Shown: piece by piece, positions 815 through 55,687 of the stretch | Layout of the letters: every line of letters begins with the position of its first letter | How positions within the stretch are numbered: the first letter of the stretch is position 1 | Assembly (NCBI GenBank): GCA_947627435.1 | Contig: CANQWB010000002.1 | Location: 16,643-80,642 of the forward strand | Length of the DNA stretch: 64,000 nt | DNA from: an uncultured Bacilli bacterium | GTDB taxonomy: Bacteria > Bacillota_I > Bacilli_A > RF39 > UBA660 | Direction: 5' to 3' | Notes under the pieces: model-generated | Databases searched by the model: none | Seen by the model: the letters and a program-made list of their open reading frames with translations, nothing else | What the model was told of the DNA's origin: nothing | Translations under genes and position numbers: made by a program

Positions 815-895
815 AATCATAAAATAGTTTCAAATAGTAAGCATTTCTAATATTTGCTATTTGTAAACGGGGGGGGGTACCCTCTTTTTTATTGT
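815..895 (+). promoter_or_regulatory. conserved 5' leader element, copy 1 (long stem-loop, then G9 tract and terminator-like hairpin)
   Basis: 81 nt nearly identical to 2404-2486. Stem 827-868. G9-TA-CCC-TC-T6 at 869-890. Confidence 0.5.
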
Positions 896-987
896 GTTGA
901 AAAGAGAAATAAAATATAGTACACTGATAGTGTATATAAGAATAAAAGAATAAAAAAAGTATCAAAATAGGAGTGGGAGTGGTTCTA

Positions 988-2340
988 ATGAAAAATATGG
1001 AAAATATGAAGAAAAAAGGATTTACATTAATAGAATTATTGGCAGTAATCGTGGTATTATCTGTAATCGCCTTAATTACAGTACCAATGATAATGAATGT
1101 AATAGAGAAAACTAGAAAAGAAGCATTCAAAGATAGTGTATTAGGAGCATTTACAACTTTGGATTATTATTTATTAGAAAATGATTTACAAGATATACCA
1201 GAAGCAGGAATAGAAGTAAAGGATTTGAAATTAAAAAATAATTCATTTGAATATGGGATTATAATCAAAAATAGTGAAGGCAAATTAGAAGCCATTAATG
1301 TAAGTGATGGAAAGTACTGTGCACAAGGAGAACAAACGAAACTAGAAATAAATAAAGGAGAATGTGATGCAGAGGCACCAACAGTAGAAGTAGAAGTGGA
1401 AGGTAAAAAAGCAACAATAACATTAAGAGATAATGTAGGAGTAATAGGATATGCAGTAACAGAAAAAGGAAAAGAAGTAACAGAATGGACAACCATTTCT
1501 GAAACGAAAGAAATCACAAAAGAATGGGAAGCAGAAAAAGCAGGAGAGTATACTGCATGGGTAAAAGATAAATATGGAAAAGTGAATCATGAAGATTTTA
1601 CAATAAAAGAAAGTGCATTCTGTGCATATAAAGCAGGAGAATTTGTGCAAACATTTGAAAATATAGGGAATGTAGAAGAATTTACAGTACCATGTGATGG
1701 AATCTATAAATTAGAAGTATGGGGTGCACAAGGTGGCTCTGCAGGTGGGGCTAGTGGAGGAAAAGGTGGATATTCTATTGGATATAGGAAGTTTGTACAG
1801 GGTTCTTCACTTTATATCTATGCTGGAGCGCAAGGTGCAAGTAGTCCGGGAAGTGGTAATGTCGGAAACGAAAGCTTTGGTAGAGGTGGAAGTGCATCTT
1901 ACATCACTACAAAATCTGGTCTTTTATCAACATTCAATGATGATAGAGCGTCAGTACTTATAGTTGCTGGAGGCGGCGGAGGCGGATATCAATATGTTGG
2001 ATACAGTAACAAAGTGTACACTAATAATATAACCGGTGGAACTGGTGGTGGATTAGATGGAGGATCGAGTGCTAACAAACTTGGTAATTTAGGACTTGGA
2101 GGATCTCAGTCTAGTGGTCCTGGGGGATTTGGAGCTGCCGGTGGTAGCCTTGGTGGAGGCGGCTGGTATGGTGGCGGTGGAGCTGGAAACACTAATGTTG
2201 CAGGAGGTGGTGGTTCTGGCTATATTGATGGAGTTCCAGAAATTACTGACAATGAAACTACTTATTCGCCTTCAACAGAAAATGGAGTACAATCCGGAAA
2301 TGGAAAAGCCCAAATCACCTTAGTATCAATAGCCGAATAA
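988..2340 (+). CDS. prepilin-type N-terminal cleavage/methylation protein with an Ig-like middle region and a C-terminal glycine-rich (ALK/LTK-like) domain
   Basis: GGGAG 975-979 then ATG 988; the track start at 973 is GTG. The leader MKNMENMKKKG|FTLIELLAVIVVLSVIAL is a class III signal with Glu+5. The C-terminus reads FTVPCDGIYKLEVWGAQGG...GGGGWYGGGGAG. Confidence 0.8.
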   Translation: MKNMENMKKKGFTLIELLAVIVVLSVIALITVPMIMNVIEKTRKEAFKDSVLGAFTTLDYYLLENDLQDIPEAGIEVKDLKLKNNSFEYGIIIKNSEGKLEAINVSDGKYCAQGEQTKLEINKGECDAEAPTVEVEVEGKKATITLRDNVGVIGYAVTEKGKEVTEWTTISETKEITKEWEAEKAGEYTAWVKDKYGKVNHEDFTIKESAFCAYKAGEFVQTFENIGNVEEFTVPCDGIYKLEVWGAQGGSAGGASGGKGGYSIGYRKFVQGSSLYIYAGAQGASSPGSGNVGNESFGRGGSASYITTKSGLLSTFNDDRASVLIVAGGGGGGYQYVGYSNKVYTNNITGGTGGGLDGGSSANKLGNLGLGGSQSSGPGGFGAAGGSLGGGGWYGGGGAGNTNVAGGGGSGYIDGVPEITDNETTYSPSTENGVQSGNGKAQITLVSIAE

Positions 2341-2353
2341 TATAAGATAAATA

Positions 2354-2380
2354 AGAGTCTTGAAAACAAGATTCTTTTTT
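2354..2380 (+). terminator. intrinsic terminator after pilin-like gene 1
   Basis: GAGTCTTG-aaaa-CAAGATTC stem (one G:U pair) followed by T6. Confidence 0.6.
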
Positions 2381-2388
2381 GTTATAAT
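2360..2388 (+). promoter_or_regulatory. sigma-A promoter for pilin-like gene 2
   Basis: TTGAAA (2360-2365), 17-nt spacer, TATAAT (2383-2388), with TGt giving an extended -10. It overlaps the preceding terminator. Confidence 0.6.
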
Positions 2389-2403
2389 GAGTATGTCAGA
2401 TAA

Positions 2404-2486
2404 AATCATAGAATAGTTTCAAATAGTAAGCCTTTTTGATATTTGCTATTTGTAAACGGGGGGGGGGTACCCCTCTTTTTTATTGT
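2404..2486 (+). promoter_or_regulatory. conserved 5' leader element, copy 2 (long stem-loop, then G10 tract and terminator-like hairpin)
   Basis: 83 nt. By hand alignment it differs from 815-895 by 4 substitutions plus one extra G and one extra C. Stem 2416-2457. G10-TA-CCCC-TC-T6 at 2458-2481. Confidence 0.5.
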
Positions 2487-2503: not shown

Positions 2504-4024
2504 ATGAAGAAAAAAGGGTTCGCAACAAGTGCCATATTGTACACGATTTTACTTTTATTTTTGGTATTATTAGTAGGAATCTTAAATAATTTACAAAATA
2601 GAAAAATGATATTGGATACATTGAAAGAACAAACAAAACAAGAATTAGAAAATAGAAAAGAAAAATTAGAAGATAATCAATATTATGAAAAACTCTTAAA
2701 TGGTGCATATCCAGAATTAAAAGAAGGATTGATTCCTGTAACAATCGAAAAAGATGGAACTGTAAAGAAAGCAGATTTGACAAAAGAATGGTATAGTTAT
2801 GAGAAAAAAGAGTGGGCCAATGCAGTCATATTAAAAGATGAGACAAAAACCTATAAAGAGGAAGCAATTATACCAGAATCCAATATAGAAAGTTACTTTG
2901 TATGGATACCCAAATATAGTTATCAAATATGGGACTTAGGACAATATTCATCCATAACTAAGGAAGATGGAAAAAAAGTGCATGAAATACCAATTGTATT
3001 TGGATCGACAAATACCAATGATGAAATAGAAGACGAATGTACTACACCAATGAATGAAAATAAAACACAAGGGTTGGCAGGAGAAACTGGAAAATGTCAA
3101 GTAGGAGATTATATGACACATCCTGCATTTATTGCATTCAACGTTAAAGGATTTTGGGTAGGAAAATTTGAAACGGGATATGATGGAGCAAATAGTACTA
3201 CAACTGCACAGGTAAATAATAATGATTTTAGTAAAATTATTATTAAACCAAATGTATATAGTTGGAGAAATATCAGCGTTGGTAATGCCTTTAAAGCCAG
3301 TTACGACTATAAAAGAGAATTCAATTCTCATATGATGAAGAATACAGAATGGGGAGCAGTAACTTATTTGCAATATTCTAAATATGGAAGTAATACGACT
3401 AAAGTACGTATTAATAATAACAATTCAATGATTACCGGATATGCTTCGACAGAAGAACCAACAAAAGGACAAAGTGTAAATAGTATTAGTGGCAATCGTC
3501 ATGAATCAACTGCCTTGAATAAAGATGGAACATATACTAAAATGTATAATACCGAGACAGGATATTTAGCGAGTACAACTAGAAATATTACTGGTATATA
3601 TGATTTAAATGGAGGTGCAATTGAATATACCACAGGCTATACAACAAGTGCGAATAGTATAGGAGGATCTAGTGGAATTACATTATTGTATTCAGATTTT
3701 TTTACCAATAAACAATGGGAACCATATTATGATAAATATACCGCAAAGAATAATACTCAATATAACAATCGAATATTAGGAGATGCTACGGGAGAAATGG
3801 GTCCAATTGGGCAAGCGACTGTTTCTTCAGCTGACAATGTAGTAAGGCCTTTCACAAGTTGGTATTATGATTGCTTTTGCTTTGTAACAAATACGGGTCC
3901 ATGGTTTAGACGTGGCGGTCATGTAAACAATGGAGCAATTGCAGGTATAGTTGCAGCAGATGGAAATGATGGAGCAGCTACAGATGGTATTTCTTTCCGC
4001 ATTGTACTTGCATGGAATAAATGA
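2504..4024 (+). CDS. pilin-like protein lacking Glu+5, with a large C-terminal globular domain (weak FGE/C-type-lectin-like resemblance)
   Basis: AGGAG 2491-2495 then ATG 2504; the track start at 2483 is TTG. The N-terminus is MKKKG|FATSAILYTILLLFLVLLVGIL. The C-terminus ends ...WFRRGGHVNNG...GISFRIVLAW. Confidence 0.7.
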   Translation: MKKKGFATSAILYTILLLFLVLLVGILNNLQNRKMILDTLKEQTKQELENRKEKLEDNQYYEKLLNGAYPELKEGLIPVTIEKDGTVKKADLTKEWYSYEKKEWANAVILKDETKTYKEEAIIPESNIESYFVWIPKYSYQIWDLGQYSSITKEDGKKVHEIPIVFGSTNTNDEIEDECTTPMNENKTQGLAGETGKCQVGDYMTHPAFIAFNVKGFWVGKFETGYDGANSTTTAQVNNNDFSKIIIKPNVYSWRNISVGNAFKASYDYKREFNSHMMKNTEWGAVTYLQYSKYGSNTTKVRINNNNSMITGYASTEEPTKGQSVNSISGNRHESTALNKDGTYTKMYNTETGYLASTTRNITGIYDLNGGAIEYTTGYTTSANSIGGSSGITLLYSDFFTNKQWEPYYDKYTAKNNTQYNNRILGDATGEMGPIGQATVSSADNVVRPFTSWYYDCFCFVTNTGPWFRRGGHVNNGAIAGIVAADGNDGAATDGISFRIVLAWNK

Positions 4025-8110: not shown

Positions 8111-8138
8111 TTACGATTTGAATGAATTATGGTACAAT
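8111..8138 (+). promoter_or_regulatory. candidate promoter for pilin-like gene 3
   Basis: TTACGA-16 nt-TACAAT with TGg giving an extended -10 (8130-8138), directly after the pbpB stop. Confidence 0.35.
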
Positions 8139-8154
8139 AGAATTAGGTGAGCAT

Positions 8155-9327
8155 ATGAAGAAAAAAGGTTTTACATTAGTAGAATTATTAGCGGTAATAG
8201 TCATTCTTGGAGTAATTTCATTAATTGTGTTTCCTACAGTAATGAATAGTATTCATAAATCGAAACAAAATTTATATAAAATTCAAGTACAAGATATTGA
8301 AAAAGCAGGAAAAAAATGGATAAATGAACATATGGAATATTTAGATGATTCTCATTTAAATACAATTGGTGTTTCGCTTTCTTCTTTAATAGAGTCCGGC
8401 TATTTACAAAAAAATGATATCTTGGATCCAAGAGATAAGAGTCGTATGAATGGTTGTGTGACAATTATTTATGATGATACTATATCACAATATCAATATC
8501 ATTATGTAGAATCTTCTTGTGCAGAAGCAGTTACCAATGGAATGATTTATTCATATGAAAATAATACATGGAATATGATTGAAAAAAATGTCCGTAAATT
8601 AGCTTCCAGTACCATTATTGCTCAATATGTTGACAATAATATATTAAAAGTAGATGGTCAAACTGATGATGGTTTTTACGATGAAGGAGATCGATACATT
8701 TATCGTGGTACTGATGTCAATAATTATGCCAAATTAAGTGGTGGAACGGAAACTTATCGTATACTAAGTATTGAAAAGACAACTGGTCATATTCGTCTTA
8801 TGGGAACCACTTCTATTCCTAATGTATGGGATAGTAATAATACAACAACATTTGAAAATGCCAGTGTCACAACGGTACAATTAGAAAGTTATTACAACAG
8901 TACTTCTAATGGCATCACAACCAATGCGTCTAAAATTGTAACAGATGCTTTATGGAATACAGGGAATATTGTAGAAGATAGTTCCTATTTGGTATTAAAA
9001 AATTTAGAAGCAGATAGAACTGCATATGGGAAAATTGGCTTACCTTCCATTAGTGATTATGTTGGAGCTTCTACAGAACCAACTTGTCATAGTTCTATTT
9101 TATCTGAATCATGTAAACAACATAATTATTTATCTGAATTATGGAAGGGAAAAAATAATTGGTTAATCAATACGGATGGAACATCCATTTGGTATGTGGA
9201 TGCAAATGGATCTTTAAACCGTTCTAATGCCAATACCATTTATAATATTTATCCTGTAATTGAAATTAAAAATGTATATATTGAAAATGGAATTGGAACT
9301 TCTGTTAGTCCTTATATTTTTAAATAA
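8155..9327 (+). CDS. prepilin-type N-terminal cleavage/methylation protein with a large C-terminal domain
   Basis: ATG 8155 gives MKKKG|FTLVELLAVIVILGVISLIVFP, a class III signal with Glu+5. A pilin-like head (..SGYLQKNDILDPRDK..GCV..) is followed by about 250 extra residues. Confidence 0.8.
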   Translation: MKKKGFTLVELLAVIVILGVISLIVFPTVMNSIHKSKQNLYKIQVQDIEKAGKKWINEHMEYLDDSHLNTIGVSLSSLIESGYLQKNDILDPRDKSRMNGCVTIIYDDTISQYQYHYVESSCAEAVTNGMIYSYENNTWNMIEKNVRKLASSTIIAQYVDNNILKVDGQTDDGFYDEGDRYIYRGTDVNNYAKLSGGTETYRILSIEKTTGHIRLMGTTSIPNVWDSNNTTTFENASVTTVQLESYYNSTSNGITTNASKIVTDALWNTGNIVEDSSYLVLKNLEADRTAYGKIGLPSISDYVGASTEPTCHSSILSESCKQHNYLSELWKGKNNWLINTDGTSIWYVDANGSLNRSNANTIYNIYPVIEIKNVYIENGIGTSVSPYIFK

Positions 9328-9334
9328 AAATGAG

Positions 9335-9358
9335 AAAAGTGTTCAATTGAACACTTTT
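9335..9358. terminator. bidirectional terminator (perfect 24-bp palindrome) between convergent pilin-like gene 3 and ftsW
   Basis: AAAAGTGTTCAATTGAACACTTTT with T/A runs on both sides. It overlaps the ftsW stop codon. Confidence 0.7.
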
Positions 9359-10445
9359 ATTTTTCGTATCTGCTGATATTCAACACAATTCCAATTTCTA
9401 GTAATGTAATCATTAAACTAGAACCCCCATAACTTAAAAATGGAAGTGTTACTCCTGTTACTGGAATAAGTCCAACAACCACCATTAAGTTCAACACAGC
9501 TTGAAATGCAATCTGAAATATAATTCCGAAAGCTAAATACTTTGCAAAATTGTCATTCGCTTTTCTGGCAATTTGAAATCCTTTTGCAATAATAAGCAAA
9601 AATAAACTACTTACAATTAATATACCCATAAATCCAAATTCTTCACTAATAATCGAAAATATAAAATCAGTTTGTGGTTCTGGTAGATAAAAATGTTTTT
9701 GTCTAGAATTTAAAAATCCGTATCCAAATAGACCTCCTGGGCCTATCGCATATAAAGATTGAATAATTTGAAATCCACTACCTAATGGGTCACTCCATGG
9801 GTTTAAAAACGACAAAATTCTTTTCAATCGATAAGGCGCCATTGCGATTAATCCGATAATTCCAAGTAGACCAATCATAGCAGTTTTCATAAAAAATTTA
9901 AAATTGACACCGGCAATAAAAAGTAATCCTATAATACTTATAACAATAATAACACCAGTTCCGAAGTCAGGTTGTAACATAATTAACCCAAATACAAATA
10001 ATACAATACTTAAGATAGGAAGAACTCCCTTTTTAATATTTTTTAAATATTTTTCATTTTTACATAAATATTTTGAAGTGAAAATAATAAGAGAAATTTT
10101 AGCAAATTCACTGGGTTGAATTCCAAATGATCCAATTCCAAACCAACTTCGACTCCCATTTCGAACAGTTCCAATTCCTGGAATAATAACAAGTATAAGT
10201 AAAATAAGACACGCAATTAAAATGAAATTTGCTTTTTCAAAATACACCCGATAATCAATTTTACTAACTAGATAAAGTAATATAATTCCAATGACAAAAA
10301 ATAACGTTTGGTGTTTTACAAAATGAAAAGCATCATTGAATTTATATGTTGCCCAAATATAGGAAGCAGAAAATATCATAATAATTCCAAAAATAGAAAT
10401 CGTGATGACTGAAAATAATAAAACGAGGTCTACTTGTTTTTTCAT
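9357..10445 (-). CDS. ftsW: SEDS-family peptidoglycan polymerase (FtsW/SpoVE type)
   Basis: Polytopic membrane protein with PSEFAKISLIIF, LPEPQTDFIFSIISEEFGF and LPFLSYGGSS. ATG at 10445 lies 1 nt after the mraY stop. Confidence 0.85.
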   Translation of the reverse strand: MKKQVDLVLLFSVITISIFGIIMIFSASYIWATYKFNDAFHFVKHQTLFFVIGIILLYLVSKIDYRVYFEKANFILIACLILLILVIIPGIGTVRNGSRSWFGIGSFGIQPSEFAKISLIIFTSKYLCKNEKYLKNIKKGVLPILSIVLFVFGLIMLQPDFGTGVIIVISIIGLLFIAGVNFKFFMKTAMIGLLGIIGLIAMAPYRLKRILSFLNPWSDPLGSGFQIIQSLYAIGPGGLFGYGFLNSRQKHFYLPEPQTDFIFSIISEEFGFMGILIVSSLFLLIIAKGFQIARKANDNFAKYLAFGIIFQIAFQAVLNLMVVVGLIPVTGVTLPFLSYGGSSLMITLLEIGIVLNISRYEK

Positions 10446-10446
10446 A

Positions 10447-11439
10447 TTAGAACCACACTCCATATATAATGGCAATCATAGATCCTAATAACCCAATAAT
10501 CCAAAATAATTTCACAATATCTTGTTCTTTCCAACCTAATTTTTCAAATGTATGATGAATTGGAGTCATTGGAAAAATCCGTTTATGAGTGAGTTTATAA
10601 TAAAAGCGCTGTATTAAACAAGTAGTCGTTTCTATAACAAACACAATTCCAATTACAATTAATAACAATTCATGTCTAGTTAAGATGGCGATAGTACCTA
10701 AAGTTGCACCTAATGTTAGAGAACCCGTATCTCCCATAAAGACTTTAGCAGGTTTTACATTAAAAATTAAAAATCCTAAAATACTACCTAATAGAACAAA
10801 ACAGAAAATGGCAATAGCTTCATAGCCTTCTAACCATCCGGTTGCCCATGTAATAATACCAAAAGTACCAAATGCGATGGCAGAAAGTCCACCCGCAAGC
10901 CCATCTAGTCCATCTGTAATATTAACGGCATTTGAACTTGCAACTAAGACAAATAGAATAAATAATCCATAAAACCAACCAATGTCCCATTTAATTCTTA
11001 AACTGTGAATCCATAGAAGAGGCTCATTGTTTGCTAACATAAAAAGGTAAAAAAAGAGAATGGCTATCATAATTTGAAACAATAATTTTTGGTTTTCTGA
11101 CAATCCTTTGTTATTATGTTTCAATATAATTAATAAATCATCCGCAAATCCAATCAATGCATATCCTAGAAAAGTAATTAAAACGATTCCTAGATTATAA
11201 GAAAAGGTAATTTTGTGAGATAAATATAAAAGTAACATAATTATAAGAGATGGCAAAATGAAAATAATTCCACCCATTGTTGGGGTTCCTGTTTTTTCTT
11301 TGTGTTGTTCATTTAAATAAATACTGAGTGATTGTGAAGCTTTCAATTTATGTAATATTGGAATTACAAGATAGGCAAAACAAATAGAAAAAATAAATCC
11401 AATCATCATCGCTAAAACAGATTTTGTTAATAATAACAT
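10447..11439 (-). CDS. mraY: phospho-N-acetylmuramoyl-pentapeptide transferase MraY
   Basis: GTPTMGGIIF, NAVNITDGLDGLA and FMGDTGSLTLG motifs; 10 TM-like segments. Confidence 0.9.
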   Translation of the reverse strand: MLLLTKSVLAMMIGFIFSICFAYLVIPILHKLKASQSLSIYLNEQHKEKTGTPTMGGIIFILPSLIIMLLLYLSHKITFSYNLGIVLITFLGYALIGFADDLLIILKHNNKGLSENQKLLFQIMIAILFFYLFMLANNEPLLWIHSLRIKWDIGWFYGLFILFVLVASSNAVNITDGLDGLAGGLSAIAFGTFGIITWATGWLEGYEAIAIFCFVLLGSILGFLIFNVKPAKVFMGDTGSLTLGATLGTIAILTRHELLLIVIGIVFVIETTTCLIQRFYYKLTHKRIFPMTPIHHTFEKLGWKEQDIVKLFWIIGLLGSMIAIIYGVWF

Positions 11440-31883: not shown

Positions 31884-33068
31884 ATGGCAAAACAAAAATT
31901 TGATCGTTCAAAACCACATGTTAACATTGGTACAATTGGACACGTAGACCACGGTAAAACAACTTTAACTGCGGCTATTACAAATGTATTATCTAAAAAA
32001 GGATTCGCTGAATTCGTAGATTATGCAAATATTGATAAAGCACCAGAAGAAAGAGAACGTGGAATCACAATTAACACTTCTCACGTAGAATATCAAACTG
32101 ACAAAAGACACTATGCTCACGTAGACTGTCCAGGACATGCTGACTACGTAAAGAACATGATTACTGGTGCAGCACAAATGGATGGAGCAATCTTAGTTAT
32201 TGCTGCAACTGATGGACCTATGGCACAAACTCGTGAACATATCTTATTATCACGTCAAGTTGGTGTACCTCGTATGGTTGTATTCATGAACAAATGCGAC
32301 ATGGTTGATGATGAAGAATTATTAGACTTAGTTGAAATGGAAATTCGTGAATTATTAAATGAATATGGATTCGAAGGAGACGAAACTCCAATTATCCGTG
32401 GATCTGCATTAAAAGCTCTTGAAGGAGATCCTAAATATGAACAAGCAATCTTAGATTTAATGGATGCTGTTGATAACTGGATTCAAACTCCACCACGTGA
32501 TACTGATAAACCTTTCTTAATGCCAGTAGAAGATGTATTTACTATTACTGGACGTGGAACTGTTGTTACAGGACGTGTTGAAAGAGGACAACTCAAATTA
32601 AATGACGAAGTTGAAATCGTTGGATTAAAACCTACTAAGAAAACTGTTGTTACAGGAATTGAAATGTTCCGTAAACAATTAGACTATGCAGAATCAGGAG
32701 ACAATGCCGGAGTATTATTACGTGGTATTGCTCGTGAAGAAGTAGAACGTGGTCAAGTATTAGCAAAACCAGGTTCTGTTACTCCACATAAAAAATTCAA
32801 AGCACAAGTTTATGTATTAACCAAAGAAGAAGGTGGAAGACATACTCCATTCTTCAGTAATTATCGTCCACAATTCTATTTCAGAACTACAGACGTTACA
32901 GGTGTTATTGAATTACCTGCAGGTGTAGAAATGGTTATGCCTGGAGATAATGTAGAAATGACTGTTGAATTAATTGCTCCTATTGCTATCGAAAATGGAA
33001 CAAAATTCTCTATTCGTGAAGGTGGTAGAACAGTTGGTTCTGGAAACATTTCAGAAATTATCCAATAA
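31884..33068 (+). CDS. tuf: elongation factor Tu
   Basis: [18 protein letters not shown] and NKCD motifs; 394 aa. Confidence 0.95.
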
Positions 33069-33074
33069 AAAAAT

Positions 33075-33104
33075 AAGCAGAAATGTAAATTTCTGCTTTT
33101 TTTA
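33075..33104. terminator. bidirectional terminator between tuf and the convergent femAB-type gene
   Basis: AAGCAGAAAT-gtaa-ATTTCTGCTT stem flanked by A-runs and T-runs. Confidence 0.75.
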
Positions 33105-34352
33105 TTTCTTTAATATATTTCGAATACCAATACTATTACGATACATAAAGTAAAGTGTATTATTTGTGATGAGTTCCATATCACCCATATACTCATGGAC
33201 ATTGGCATGAAATCCAATTTTAAAATCATTTAATCCACGATATGGATTTTTAGGTAAATCTAAATCAGTAATCCCTCCTAAATTGAATGTTTGAAATCCT
33301 TCCTGTGCATAGTGTTCACACAATTTCCAAATCAACAAATGTTTTGCATTCAGCCTTTTATATTTGGTATCATACCCATCCATCAATAAATAGGCTTCAT
33401 TACGATTTTTTACAACCAAAGCTGAAGCAATGATCATTCCTTCTGGGTAATTTTTTAGTAAATTGGTAGCCAATATCAATTCTTTATGATATTGATTGAA
33501 AAGATTATCCGCTTCAATTTTTTGATTTAAAAATTTTTCATTATGTTGGGAATGTTGATTCACTAGTTTTTGACTGAGTATATTACATATTTCTTCTTGT
33601 TCACGATAACGGTTTGTCATTGTTTGTAAATAGATAGCAGTATCTAGTTTTATATAGTAAAAATCAATTTGCCCCGTTGCATGAAATGCTTGATAACAAT
33701 CTTTAAAATAAGCAAGATCTCTAGGATATTTTTTTTTGGTTTGAAGATAGAGATGATCTAATTCATTTTCCGTACCTAGATATAGTTGCATTCCTCTTTC
33801 TTCGGCACCTCTTATTTTTGTTCGAAACTCTTTTCGAATGTTTTTGAAAAGTAATTGTTTTGGTACATCCAATGTGATATAAGCTTCATATCGAGGTTTA
33901 AATGCTTCAAAAAAATAATTGTAGCCAGTATGATGATATCCTAATTTACCAAAGTTTTCAAATATAGTATCATATTGACTATCTTTTCTCGTTAAACGTT
34001 TTGCGGGGATATGTGTATATCTTAAGACATATGGATTTAATTTAATCGCAATAATATTTCTTTTTCCTAAATATTTTTTGATTTCTTTTGTAAATAGTTC
34101 AAATAATTCAAAGTTGGTATAATCTAACAAAAAACCACGTGGAGCATATGCGTATTTAAAATTATGAACTTTATCTATTAAAATGAGTGATGCTGCTAAG
34201 ATTTTTTCGTTTTGAGTAAGGCCTAAAAAAAGTATTTCGAACTTTTGCCTTTGCATAACAAAAGCATATTCTTTACTTTGATATAAAGATTTTGTTGGAA
34301 AAGTATCCGCAAATTGTTGAAATTCTAATTCCGTTAATTCTTTTAATAACAT
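33102..34352 (-). CDS. FemAB-family peptidoglycan interpeptide-bridge aminoacyltransferase (FemX/MurM-like)
   Basis: 416 aa. ..FQQFADTFPTKSLYQSKEYA..YAYAPRGFLLDY.. The two GNAT-like halves are split by a helical insertion, as in FemA/FemX. Confidence 0.75.
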   Translation of the reverse strand: MLLKELTELEFQQFADTFPTKSLYQSKEYAFVMQRQKFEILFLGLTQNEKILAASLILIDKVHNFKYAYAPRGFLLDYTNFELFELFTKEIKKYLGKRNIIAIKLNPYVLRYTHIPAKRLTRKDSQYDTIFENFGKLGYHHTGYNYFFEAFKPRYEAYITLDVPKQLLFKNIRKEFRTKIRGAEERGMQLYLGTENELDHLYLQTKKKYPRDLAYFKDCYQAFHATGQIDFYYIKLDTAIYLQTMTNRYREQEEICNILSQKLVNQHSQHNEKFLNQKIEADNLFNQYHKELILATNLLKNYPEGMIIASALVVKNRNEAYLLMDGYDTKYKRLNAKHLLIWKLCEHYAQEGFQTFNLGGITDLDLPKNPYRGLNDFKIGFHANVHEYMGDMELITNNTLYFMYRNSIGIRNILKK

Positions 34353-34520: not shown

Positions 34521-36668
34521 ATGGAACGAGATCAAAAAAATATTTATACTTATTATAAGGAATATCATCCTGATTTGGTTGAATGTGTATATAATGTAGC
34601 GACATCAAAGCAAGCAAGATCTATTTTTATAAAAAAATGGGGTCCTCATTTAAGTGGTTTAATCATATCCAATATGACGCAAGAAGATAACGATTTATTT
34701 TTAAAGTATGCTTCTATATTTGAAAAATATTTAAAATATTCACAAAAACTTCTAAACAAAGGATATTCACTTACTCAGATTAAAAATATTTTAATAGAAA
34801 AATTAGCTGTGCAAAAAGTATCTTCTAAAAACAAGAAAGTAGTGAAAATTTATAATAATGTAAATTCTATTTTAGAACAATATAATATTACAAAAGATGA
34901 AATGTTAGAGGTTTTGGATACTTTATCCAGTGAAAAAAGATGTTGCTTTATCTATTTATATGGAATCAATCGTCCACAAATGAAATTAGACAAAGTAGAA
35001 GAAGTGTTAAAAATCAGCCATGTACTTGCCCTTGCATATATTCAAGCGGTATACGATGCTTTAGAAAAATATCAAGTAACTCGTGATACCCAAAGTGCTT
35101 TACCACATATAGATCAAAAACAACCTAATTATGTGAAACGTAATTTAGGCACTAAAACAAGAAAACAAAGTATCTATGATTATTTTGAAGCAGAAGATAA
35201 AAATTATGTAATAGAAAAAATAGAATATTGGAAACAATATAATGAAAACAATTATAACTTAATTGTGAAATTATATGGATCAACTTATGATCACCTTGAT
35301 AAAGCAGTCAAATTGACAGATGAAGAATCAAAAATATGGAATAATATTTTAACACAAATAAAAAAATATGTGGTCAATCGAAAACAAGGTTTAATTTCAA
35401 GTAAAGGTAGATTAAAAAATCAAAGTATCTATGATTATTTTGAAGTGGAAGCAAAAATTTATGTAATAGAAAAAATAGAATACTGGAAACAACATAATGA
35501 AAAATATTATAATTTAATTGTGAAATTATATGGATCAACTTATGATCACCTTGATAAAGCAGTCAAATTGACAGAAGAAGAATCAAAAATATGGAGTATT
35601 ATTTTAACACAATTAAAAAAATATGTGGTCAATCGAAAACAAGGTTTAATTTCAAGTAAAGGTAGATTAAAAAATCAAAGTATCTATGATTATTTTGAAG
35701 TGGAAGCAAAAATTTATGTAATAGAAAAAATAGAATACTGGAAACAACATAATGAAAAATATTATAATTTAATTGTGAAATTATATGGATCAACTTATGA
35801 TCACCTTGATAAAGCAGTCAAATTGACAGATGAAGAATCTCAAACATGGCATAATCTTATATCACAAATAAAAAAATATATAGTCAATCGAAAACAAGGT
35901 TTAATTTCAAGTAAAGGTAGATTAAAAAACCAAAGTATCTATGATTATTTTGAAGCGGAAGCAAAAAATTATGTAATAGAAAAAATAGAATATTGGAAAC
36001 AACATAATGAAAAATATTATAATTTAATTGTGAAATTATATGGTCCAACCTATGATCACCTTGATAAAACAATCAAATTGACAGATGAAGAATCTCAAAT
36101 ATGGAATACTATTTTAACACAATTCAGAAAATATATAGTCAATCGAAAACACGGATTGTCAAGTAAAGGAAAAGCAAGAAACCAAAGCATTTATGATTAT
36201 TTTAAAATAGAAGAGAAAAATGATGTAATAGAAAGAATAGAATACTGGAGAAAACATAACGAAAACTATTATAATCTTATTGTAAAATTATATGGTCCAA
36301 CCTATGATCACCTTGATAAAGCAGTCAAATTGACAGATGAAGAATCCAAAATATGGAATAATATTTTAACACAATTAAAGAAATATATAGATAATCGAAA
36401 AAACCAATGCAACGAAATTATCACTCATCAAAATGACTCAATAAAGGCACTACAACTGAAGGATAGCATATATGATTATGTAAATGAAAAAAAAGTTCCT
36501 TATTTATTGGAACAAATAGAATACTGGAAGCAACATAATGAAAACTATTATAATCTTATTGTAAAATTATATGGTCCAACTTATGACCATTTAGATTCTA
36601 CATATGAAATGACAGAAGAGGAAAGCAAATTATGGAAAACGTTACAAGAAATTTACCTATTTATATAG
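34521..36668 (+). CDS. tandem-repeat protein built from sigma-70 region-4-like HTH modules (function unknown)
   Basis: 715 aa. The repeated unit is ..QSIYDYFE.E.K.YVIEKIEYWKQHNE.YYNLIVKLYG.TYDHLDKAVKLTDEESKIW..IL.Q.KKY..NRK... Degenerate copies occur at the N-terminus. Confidence 0.65.
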   Translation: MERDQKNIYTYYKEYHPDLVECVYNVATSKQARSIFIKKWGPHLSGLIISNMTQEDNDLFLKYASIFEKYLKYSQKLLNKGYSLTQIKNILIEKLAVQKVSSKNKKVVKIYNNVNSILEQYNITKDEMLEVLDTLSSEKRCCFIYLYGINRPQMKLDKVEEVLKISHVLALAYIQAVYDALEKYQVTRDTQSALPHIDQKQPNYVKRNLGTKTRKQSIYDYFEAEDKNYVIEKIEYWKQYNENNYNLIVKLYGSTYDHLDKAVKLTDEESKIWNNILTQIKKYVVNRKQGLISSKGRLKNQSIYDYFEVEAKIYVIEKIEYWKQHNEKYYNLIVKLYGSTYDHLDKAVKLTEEESKIWSIILTQLKKYVVNRKQGLISSKGRLKNQSIYDYFEVEAKIYVIEKIEYWKQHNEKYYNLIVKLYGSTYDHLDKAVKLTDEESQTWHNLISQIKKYIVNRKQGLISSKGRLKNQSIYDYFEAEAKNYVIEKIEYWKQHNEKYYNLIVKLYGPTYDHLDKTIKLTDEESQIWNTILTQFRKYIVNRKHGLSSKGKARNQSIYDYFKIEEKNDVIERIEYWRKHNENYYNLIVKLYGPTYDHLDKAVKLTDEESKIWNNILTQLKKYIDNRKNQCNEIITHQNDSIKALQLKDSIYDYVNEKKVPYLLEQIEYWKQHNENYYNLIVKLYGPTYDHLDSTYEMTEEESKLWKTLQEIYLFI
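35166..36437 (+). repeat. five tandem coding repeats of 255/252 bp (85/84 aa)
   Basis: Unit starts (CAAAGTATCTATGATTATTTT) are at 35166, 35421, 35676, 35931 and 36183. Units 2 and 3 are identical over about the first 160 bp. A sixth, degenerate unit begins near 36463. Confidence 0.85.
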
Positions 36669-54813: not shown

Positions 54814-55590
54814 CTATGCTTCAGCAGGGGTTCCAGCACTCAATTTTCTTACGATTAAATATCCATTGACACCACTAGCATCTGGTTGTTGAAGTGTACC
54901 ACTTGTTGCTTGTGCAATGATATCTACTGCATCATTTGCATTTAAGGTAGCGATAACAGTTCCACTATATACTGTGTTTGCACCAGTATTAATTGTTTGA
55001 GTAACTTGTGTTGCAGTAATATTTTGTCCTCCTGCACGAACAGCTAAAGTTGCATTATCGACGTTACTATTTTGAGCAGTTAAAAGGGCATAGTATGTGA
55101 TTTCATAAGTACCATCTTCTTCTACTGTAATTGTACCAGCACCTGTATCATATGTTTCTCCTAAGTCAGGTAATTCTTCATTCAATACAATAGTAGTTGG
55201 GGTATCTGGTGTTAGTGTAATGGTATTGGTTGTATTACGATATAATCCTCCATATGCGGCTAATCCTGCAGGGACTGTTCCGGTTGGTCCAGTAGGTCCA
55301 GTAGGTCCAGTTGGTCCAGTAGGCCCCGTAGGTCCAGTTGGTCCGGTTGGTCCCGTAGGTCCAGTTGGCCCAGTAGGTCCCGTAGGTCCAGTAGGTCCTG
55401 TTGGTCCCGTAGGCCCCGTAGGTCCTCCCGCAGGCCCCGTAGGTCCGGTTGGTCCGGTTGGCCCAGTAGGTCCAGTCATACTTACTATACTAGTAACCAT
55501 TGGGCATGTTTGTTGATAATTGTTAATTTTTTCGATAGCGTTTTGATAGGTGCTACTGCAAGGATCTCCACAATTGTTATTACAATTCAT
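54814..55590 (-). CDS. collagen-like triple-helix repeat protein with a BclA-type C-terminal domain
   Basis: 21 G-P-T/A triplets follow a Cys-rich N-terminus. The C-terminal 150 aa (..[23 protein letters not shown]..) resemble the BclA/C1q-like jelly roll. The second ATG (55590) is spaced 7 nt from GGAGG. Confidence 0.8.
55282..55473 (-). repeat. 9-bp tandem repeat encoding (Gly-Pro-Thr)n
   Basis: Direct count on the minus strand: 4 GPT + 1 GPA, one extra Gly, then 16 GPT. Codon wobble varies between units. Confidence 0.9.
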
Positions 55591-55687
55591 ATCCATTCCT
55601 CCTTTTCTAATATAAAATATGCACGGGTCAAAAAGGCAGTTAATATATATGCCGATATGCTGAGAAGAAAATAAAAAAACAATATTT

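Follow-up and report, generated by a model that had tools for sequence, protein, structure and literature searches.

A duplicated leader with poly-G in a terminator-like hairpin, a candidate phase-variable attenuator of surface-protein genes in uncultured gut Bacilli

Introduction

Why should DNA of 30% G+C carry runs of nine and ten guanines shortly before two neighbouring genes, and could such runs control them? The question is raised by a stretch of 64,000 nucleotides from an uncultured Bacilli bacterium (contig CANQWB010000002.1, positions 16,643 to 80,642; at its full length "the window" below), in which a leader-like element occurs twice on the + strand: copy A at 815-895, upstream of gene 1 (988-2340), and copy B at 2404-2486, upstream of gene 2 (2504-4024). 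An earlier note on this DNA had taken the element for the transcribed 5' leader of two pilin-like genes, and had suggested an attenuator, a riboswitch-like leader or a homopolymer phase switch. Comparison of the two copies with each other and with relatives leads us to give an even chance to the reading that the leader is a phase-variable attenuator.

Results

Layout and predicted fold of the two copies

Alignment of copies A and B bears out the four substitutions and two one-nucleotide run differences (G9 against G10, C3 against C4) that had been counted by hand. The limits given for the repeat also stand, but the flanks are not wholly unrelated: a fainter similarity extends about 15 nucleotides (nt) further, reaching 910 and 2499. 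Folding predicts for both copies, with z of about -3 against shuffles, the two-part structure that the earlier note had drawn on paper, in which an unpaired AAUCAUA..AUA segment is followed by a long A/U hairpin (P2), an abutting G:C/U hairpin and a U6 tract.

In copy A, the conserved 5' segment AAUCAUAAAAUA (815-826) is single-stranded in the predicted folds, and P2 (827-868; 5' arm GUUUCAAAUAGUAAG, 3' arm UAUUUGCUAUUUGUAAAC) appears in the folds, the consensus structure and the pair counts. The G9 tract (869-877, by run count) forms the 5' arm of the terminator-like hairpin, whose UA loop and 3' arm CCCUC lead into the U6 tract (878-890, by terminator scan and folds), and alignment defines a 3' flank, AUUGUGUUGAAAAGAGAAAU (891-910). 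Copy B has the same order: the 5' single-stranded segment AAUCAUAGAAUA (2404-2415, by alignment and folds), P2 (2416-2457, by folds and pair counts), the G10 tract as 5' arm (2458-2467), the UA loop, CCCCUC arm and U6 tract (2468-2481), and finally, within 2482-2503, the conserved 3' flank AUUGUCUGA and a ribosome-binding site, AGGAGAG (2491-2497). The flank motif AUUGU..UGAA of copy A recurs in copy B, and copies in relatives have it as AUGGU. Three of the A/B substitutions lie in the hairpin loop and one 5' of the hairpin, as had been noted. The likeness of the second part to a weak terminator is also upheld, since a terminator scan picks out the G:C/U hairpin and U tract of both copies. In each, a G+C-rich hairpin runs straight into a U tract on the transcribed strand, behind the promoter and 20-100 nt ahead of the gene, which is the layout of an attenuator.

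The G runs are as unusual as they had seemed. They are the only runs of at least six G in the 64-kb window, and hence the only ones of at least eight (869-877 and 2458-2467); the spectrum holds five G5, no G6 to G8, one G9 and one G10. The window contains five matches to G8 where shuffles give a mean of 0.07, so the runs are not a product of chance. No C run of at least six occurs in the window. Both tracts are uninterrupted and above the length, about eight or more for G or C, at which slippage becomes frequent, and both lie outside promoter spacers and reading frames.

Promoters and the transcript

Each copy had been placed behind a sigma-A-like promoter, which holds well for copy B: TTGAAA-17-TATAAT with a TG motif (2360-2388) scores 11/12, the best match of the promoter scan within the first 9 kb. 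The promoter of copy A is weaker. The site first proposed, TTGCAT-15-GATAAT (773-799), has a spacer of only 15 nt and is missing from the scan list, which offers TTGCCA-16-TAAAAT (736-763; 10/12) instead, so that the promoter region upstream of copy A (736-801) holds two candidates, one from the scan and one from reading of the sequence. A further promoter-like site, TTGAAA-17-TACACT (897-925), stands between copy A and gene 1, and copy A is therefore less certain to be part of the 5' untranslated region of gene 1 than copy B is for gene 2, where 2482-2503 is too short for a further promoter. That both copies belong to transcribed 5' leaders is supported by a promoter-to-gene architecture conserved across species, and is accordingly more secure for copy B.

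Two overlaps were seen here. The 897-925 site overlaps an imperfect palindrome, TATAGTACACTGATAGTGTATATA (916-939), which could be an operator or a second hairpin. Promoter B overlaps a terminator-like hairpin of gene 1 (2353-2376; 2353-2388 in all, by terminator and promoter scans), whose loop and 3' arm hold the -35 hexamer (2360-2365).

Leader copies in related genomes

Rfam returned no match at gathering score in the whole window, and only chance-level matches (E = 2-6, with E allowed up to 10) for 700-2600, in agreement with the earlier failure to recognise any named riboswitch class. A search of related genomes, which could have proved the element absent, instead found it: A metagenome scan with the 3' arm plus G5 as the query gave one further locus, L083, in which the leader lies between a promoter, TTGACA-17-TATAAT, and the ribosome-binding site of a gene for a 389-amino-acid (aa) protein unrelated to the window genes. 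A protein search returned homologues of the 389-aa gene from 97% down to 47% identity. The upstream regions of eight were examined (97, 89, 88, 74, 63, 61 and, twice, 55% identity), and the leader is present down to 61%.

The terminator part reads G9-UA-CCCUC-U6 and G10-UA-CCCCUC-U6 in window copies A and B, which precede different genes, and G10-AACA-CCCUC-U8 in L083, the reference. Orthologues of the L083 protein have G11-AUA-CCCUC-U8 at 97% identity (L090), G10-UACA-CCCUC-U7 at 89% (L092), G10-UAUA-CCCCCCUC-U7 at 88% (L108), G11-AAAUA-CCCUC-U6 at 74% (L093/94) and G9 or G10-UAAUA-CCCCC-U8 at 63% (L095-100). The G run, an arm of C3-6 and a tract of U6-8 are kept in all eight variants, and the loops differ (UA, AACA, AUA, UACA, AAAUA, UAAUA, UAUA). 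At 61% identity (L101-103) the same place is taken by G6-AU-CCCC-U7, an ordinary terminator. The idea that the lengths of the G and C runs change together, drawn from the two window copies, fails here: other copies have G10-11 alongside C3, C5 or C6.

The sequences of L092 and L108 hold the leader only from the 3' arm to the gene; in L083, L090, L093/94, L095-100 and L101-103 it lies between a consensus promoter and the ribosome-binding site. From the U tract to the start codon there are 20-35 nt, including the ribosome-binding site, in copy B and in all leader sets of the 389-aa gene, and none of these has a promoter in between. As this distance leaves no room for one, gene 2 and the 389-aa genes would be transcribed only by read-through.

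Trained on six copies, a covariance model retrieves all copies, and among them L101-103, which lay outside the training set (E of about 0.01). The same model and blastn-short found no leader at 80 loci with gene-2 homologues of other species. A model match at window 33018-33110 (E = 0.57) was rejected as the ordinary terminator after the open reading frame (ORF) at 31884-33068. These comparisons indicate that the leader is a real, conserved and narrowly distributed element, placed before two putative surface-protein genes in the window's genome.

The leaders also look mosaic (L083:1299-1406, L090:111-226 and L093:2388-2500). L083 and L090, with proteins 97% identical, agree completely from the terminator's C arm onwards, into the gene, and have unrelated promoters and very different 5' arms of the hairpin, whereas L083 and L093, with proteins 74% identical, hardly differ in promoter and 5' segment. 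In this comparison, recombination seems to have joined the parts at the G tract. In the leader-bearing sets L090, L092, L093-094, L095-099, L101-102 and L108, the 389-aa gene is followed by genes for a PadR-family regulator and a HAAS-domain membrane protein, an arrangement that the ORFs of L083 (1407-4328) match; the leaderless orthologues L104-107 have different neighbours.

Pairing conservation in the leader RNA

The 5' segment is invariant in 7/7 distinct copies as ATCATA, two variable bases, AT, one A/G base and GTTT. Among the copies, the 5' arm of the long hairpin has strongly diverged and the 3' arm (UGCUAUUUG[U/C]AAAC) is near-constant. Changes in the hairpin are mostly neutral to pairing (several A-U to G-U, C-G to U-G, one A-U to G-C), and an A inserted in relatives pairs with a U that is bulged in the window copies. 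Because changes to G-U or U-G keep pairing only in + strand RNA, they point to + strand RNA as the conserved form. The covariation check suggested by the earlier note was made on seven distinct sequences in a model-fitted alignment: 93% of pair cells are paired, against 57-71% with slid partners; double changes occur at three pairs, which 3/500 shuffles match; and the covariation score is matched by 2/500 shuffles. Covariation support for the helices is moderate. A candidate closing helix, P1 (AUCAUAA with UUAUGGU), is perfect in five relatives; both window copies have a mismatched C-U in it, and covariation is absent.

The suggestion of a riboswitch-like leader fares poorly. No conserved stretch upstream that could pair with the G run or the C/U arm, and so act as antiterminator, came to light when the copies and their folds were inspected, and one arm of the supposed aptamer is hypervariable; a hypervariable homopolymer helix fits a precise binding pocket poorly. 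The sole alternative pairing found joins the C/U arm to the ribosome-binding region; in copy B, folding allows the C/U arm and U tract to pair with the purine-rich stretch at 2482-2503. The conserved 5' segment and 3' arm may form a binding site for a factor.

Other readings of the tract were rejected. Modelled on promoters of relatives, an internal promoter whose spacer would contain the G run (TTGCTA-N9-G(n)-TACCCT) was considered and dropped because the hexamer after the run varies (TACCCT, TACCCC, AACACC, ATACCC, TACACC, AAATAC, TAATAC); what is conserved after the run is the C arm and U tract rather than any -10 hexamer. A leader peptide or frame-shift switch would be in keeping with a G run in frame with gene 2, but TAA stands directly upstream (2453-2455). 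Mini-ORFs upstream (ATG-TAG in copy A, seven codons in copy B) are not conserved.

Variation in tract length

The two runs had been called classic substrates for slipped-strand mispairing, and the leader of relatives supports this with differences of one G. One protein, P0127, is identical in six independent assemblies (L095-100), where the leader tract reads G10, G9, G10, G9, G9 and G10. Five of these assemblies are otherwise identical bar one mismatch over 2.4-4.0 kb, and no indel but the tract separates them. The sixth, L096, differs more, by 11 mismatches over 4.3 kb and another gap of 4 nt. The G6 tract is invariant across the three assemblies L101-103, as expected if slippage depends on tract length. 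Judged by these assemblies, the leader G tract is hypermutable in the relatives.

In the window's own strain, copy A has G9, and the sole other record of it (L088) stops after the ninth G, at its contig end (L088:5682). A second contig starts inside the G run of copy B (L087:1) and a third just after copy A, at 897 (L001:1). Short-read contigs from several studies start or end in or near poly-G in the same way (also L091:1, L092:1, L108:1 and L017:1). Because contigs break there, genes beside poly-G tracts are often split or called as fragments.

Poly-G tracts elsewhere in the lineage

The leader is wholly absent from two sets of orthologues of the 389-aa gene at 55% identity, L104/105 and L106/107, and both have poly-G in the promoter spacer: TTGACA-AAGTT-G10/G11-T-TATAAT in the first and TTGACA-ATAGCTTC-G11/G12-TATAAT in the second. 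Within each pair, L104 vs L105 and L106 vs L107, the G run is the sole difference over 2-4 kb. That orthologues without the leader carry promoter poly-G points to selection for poly-G control of the 389-aa gene.

Tracts of this kind are also common near homologues of gene 2. The 593 kb around these homologues contain 23 G runs of at least eight, with a mode of 10-11; it is the sense strand that carries the G in every case, and C runs of such length are absent. At 17/71 loci a G run of at least eight lies no more than 1.2 kb upstream of the homologue's aligned part, and the runs are concentrated there: 82 kb hold 17 of them, and 466 kb elsewhere hold 6. The tracts, G8-13, are found in promoters or in 5' coding regions.

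In the promoter-spacer class (for example TTGACA-T-G10-13-TATnnTGATAAAAT), the spacer exceeds 17 nt at the observed tract lengths, and paralogous promoters in one genome differ solely in tract length (G9, G10, G10 and G11 in L017, L014, L052 and L019). In the coding class, the tract lies within the initial 20-25 codons of the gene and mostly shifts the frame, leaving stubs of about 20-40 codons (L016, L043, L059, L063 three times, L071 twice, L073); the frame is kept in L024 (542 aa) and in L082 (654 aa, with a prepilin N-terminus). At L063:3744-7381, three tandem paralogues carry G8 or G10 about 15 codons in, and in this assembly all are frame-shifted to stubs of 20-23 codons. From this pattern we infer that poly-G at gene-2 homologues is the signature of contingency loci, and that the leader tracts of the window are a third placement of the same device before the same gene family.

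Most long G tracts, including both window tracts, have TA directly after the run and T or C before it, in promoters, coding regions and leaders alike (for example, among L003-L082, L031:3378-3390, L014:2909-2918 and L016:3909-3918). Exceptions are L048, L051 and L082 (GCA), L063:5530 (GTC), L071:3896 and L073 (GTT), and the leaders L083, L090 and L093, which have G(n)A.

Genes around the copies

The description of both genes as pilin-like fits gene 1, a 450-aa protein (988-2340) with a prepilin-type N-terminus (N_methyl / GFxxxE motif) and a glycine-rich, ALK_LTK_GRD-like domain. It fits gene 2 loosely: the 506-aa product (2504-4024, from the ORF and family searches) has a hydrophobic N-terminus without E5, and neither gene 2 nor the 389-aa gene has a significant match in Pfam, NCBIfam or PADLOC. 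The family of gene 2 is very large, with 4,272 matches, of which the nearest non-identical one has 64% identity, and 582 stretches in a collection of species-representative genomes hold relatives, often several copies per genome. Nearly all come from metagenome-assembled "uncultured Bacilli" or "Tenericutes" of human, rabbit, mouse and chicken guts; named ones include Candidatus Scybalousia and Candidatus Ventrenecus, which we take to be RF39-like small-genome Bacilli.

A third gene with a prepilin-type N-terminus (401 aa, 8122-9327) directly follows an mraZ-rsmH-ftsL-pbp cluster; over its initial 38 nt it is similar to genes 1 and 2 at their starts (repeat family D6), and it has neither a leader copy nor a G tract. 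Two repeat proteins were also seen in the window. A 715-aa ORF (34521-36668) holds, at 35159-36640, a unit of 255 nt (85 codons) repeated in tandem five to six times with 73-95% identity, and at 55258-55494 a 9-nt periodic repeat (GGTCCAGTA-like) encodes Gly-X-Y triplets on the - strand within ORF 54814-55596, which suggests a collagen-like repeat protein.

Discussion

If the leader is a phase-variable attenuator, transcription from a sigma-A-type promoter would yield a 5' leader RNA with the long A/U hairpin and then an intrinsic-terminator hairpin, whose 5' arm would be an uninterrupted run of 9-11 G and whose 3' arm would be C(3-6)UC with the U tract. The gene would be reached solely by polymerases that read through this terminator. 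Slipped-strand mispairing at replication would alter the G run and leave mixed tract lengths in a population, and the length would set how many transcripts pass and how they are used, possibly through the register or loop of the hairpin, through G-U pairs that invade the U tract, or by holding the C/U arm off the ribosome-binding site. The outcome would be a heritable, stochastic dial of expression. The repeat, its conserved architecture, the RNA-type conservation of pairing and the tract-length polymorphism in relatives are observations; any effect of tract length on expression is a proposal.

Several points weigh against this proposal. Transcription start and termination are deduced from sequence patterns, and the covariation comes from seven sequences of one narrow clade and an alignment fitted to the model that it supports. 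No length difference was seen within the strain of the window: the window, L001 and L084 all give copy B as G10 between identical flanks, although the three assemblies are identical and apparently come from one study. Short-read calls of homopolymer length can be wrong, to which the constancy of A and T runs in the same sequences is a counterpoint. Folding at n = 4-14 gives no on/off step near the natural lengths: with rising n, more and more G-U pairs prolong the stem into the U tract, and accessibility of the ribosome-binding site climbs gradually and saturates. As the G run exceeds what the C arm needs, one G more or less should barely change hairpin stability. Finally, the hairpin and terminator are kept in the G6 relative, and the attenuator should therefore have a function that does not depend on poly-G.

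There are published precedents for control of expression by a G tract located between promoter and start codon. The uspA1 tract of Moraxella catarrhalis reportedly lies downstream of the transcription start, as Lafontaine et al. are said to have found in 2001. Its geometry resembles that of copy B, in which G10 ends 36 nt before the ATG: in uspA1, which encodes a surface adhesin, an uninterrupted tract of about 8-12 G precedes the start codon by 29 bp (PMC7302503). One or two G's shift its mRNA up to about 20-fold, with about 20-fold between 10 and 12 G, giving graded high and low states (PMC7302503). The uspA1 host is a Gram-negative proteobacterium and the window organism one of the gut Bacilli; no terminator hairpin or adjoining conserved hairpin has been described for uspA1, whereas both hairpins are predicted here. 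In the tlpB-hp0102 leader of Helicobacter pylori, a variable G-repeat (6-16) in the 5' untranslated region is paired by the C/U-rich loop of the small RNA RepG, which gives graded control (PMC8295292). Both this leader and ours join a G-repeat to a C/U-rich partner, but the partner of tlpB is the terminator loop of a small RNA acting in trans, whereas here it lies in cis, 2-5 nt downstream, in a terminator-like hairpin. In both cases a leader G tract has a large effect, of a kind that equilibrium folding would not lead one to expect.

Two further comparisons concern the placement of the switch. The cwpV gene of Clostridioides difficile encodes a phase-variable surface protein of a Firmicute, with a switch between promoter and ORF and a proposed intrinsic terminator in the OFF leader transcript (PMC2784873). 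That switch is a 195-bp DNA inversion made by a site-specific recombinase; in the leader described here it is a homopolymer inside the terminator that varies, and no inverted repeats flank a switch region. Contingency loci of Neisseria, Mycoplasma and Campylobacter have homopolymers in promoter spacers or 5' coding regions. Like them, the present lineage has long G tracts in an AT-rich genome, beside surface-protein families, with lengths that vary between near-identical genomes, and relatives of the window organism use those same two placements for the same gene families. Unlike them, the window tract lies outside both the -35/-10 spacer and any reading frame; an in-frame TAA is immediately upstream, and a usable -10 after the tract is absent in the copies compared.

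The strongest alternative, which we nonetheless consider unlikely, is a conventional regulated attenuator, in which a protein, RNA or ligand acting in trans binds the 5' segment and hairpin and the instability of poly-G is tolerated noise. It would account for an architecture kept even at G6 (L101-103), for conservation of the 5' segment and of the hairpin's 3' arm far beyond the needs of pairing, and for the small effect that folding predicts for one G more or less. It accounts less well for uninterrupted G9-11 being kept in all diverged copies while the loop and 5' arm change freely, since long G runs should decay unless selected, or for leaderless orthologues with poly-G in their promoters, and neither an Rfam match nor an alternative antiterminator pairing was found for it in the searches and folds described above.

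Less probable again, and to our minds improbable, is purely post-transcriptional control, with the C/U arm and U tract as a mimic of the anti-Shine-Dalgarno sequence that can pair with the ribosome-binding site and the G run competing for that arm, or with a RepG-like small RNA in trans, so that tract length tunes translation or mRNA stability. At small n, folding of read-through transcripts does bring the purine-rich ribosome-binding region into pairing with the C/U arm and U tract, the unpaired probability of the ribosome-binding site grows with n in 6/6 copies tested, and graded control by the length of a leader G-repeat has a precedent (PMC8295292). Yet the predicted effect saturates at or below the natural lengths in most copies, and in copy A the ribosome-binding site is about 80 nt past the U tract. 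The 64-kb window offers no C-rich intergenic candidate for a small RNA; its sole C5 lies where the only listed ORF of at least 120 aa is 9357-10475 (- strand). Both this explanation and the conventional attenuator are compatible with a hypermutable tract and differ from the proposal only in what tract length does.

Very improbable is a small RNA gene, that is a promoter, a transcript of about 85-115 nt and a terminator whose product acts in trans while the downstream genes are independent: an upstream promoter-like site (of consensus grade for B), a structured RNA and a terminator-like end in each copy, several copies per genome and the extra promoter-like site at 897-925 before gene 1 would suit it, but in copy B and all orthologous sets the 20-35 nt between U tract and gene start hold no promoter, sequence conservation runs on past the U tract, and orientation and position relative to the start codon are constant. 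We can almost dismiss the absence of any function (a neutral duplication, a miniature mobile element or an artefact of poly-G sequencing or assembly), for although contigs frequently break at the tracts and two-colour Illumina chemistry can yield spurious G's, contig-internal tracts recur in conserved context across many independent studies and assemblers, the two copies in 64 kb share the same fixed orientation and position before start codons, orthologues of other species keep the position as far down as 61% protein identity, the sequences read show neither terminal inverted repeats nor target duplications, and a viral contig collection gave no match.

The phase-variable attenuator would, if it holds, be a novel device: a hypermutable homopolymer serving as an arm of an intrinsic terminator in an mRNA leader, where slippage heritably retunes attenuation and perhaps access to the ribosome-binding site, in uncultured small-genome gut Bacilli that place sense-strand poly-G among their surface-protein genes at any of three interchangeable sites, namely the promoter spacer, the 5' coding region or the leader terminator. 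We advance this wider claim tentatively, and would sooner expect it to fail in some part than to hold entire. Poly-G phase variation itself is already known. A limited literature search, which is weak evidence, found no description of a homopolymer as the arm of a leader terminator or of poly-G contingency loci in these uncultured gut Bacilli, and the leader-terminator placement is thus apparently, on that weak footing, undescribed.

Repeat slippage as a source of phase variation is familiar from a few cultured pathogens and hardly charted in the uncultured majority of gut bacteria. Since assemblies break at the tracts and frame-shifted genes are called as fragments, the surface proteome of such organisms would be systematically under-annotated. 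If the leader acts as proposed, repeat tracts could work through transcription terminators, which would offer a hypothesis for leader tracts such as that of uspA1. A lineage of small-genome Bacilli would then switch large paralogous families of surface proteins stochastically, with a bearing on immune evasion, phage resistance and the persistence of strains in the gut.

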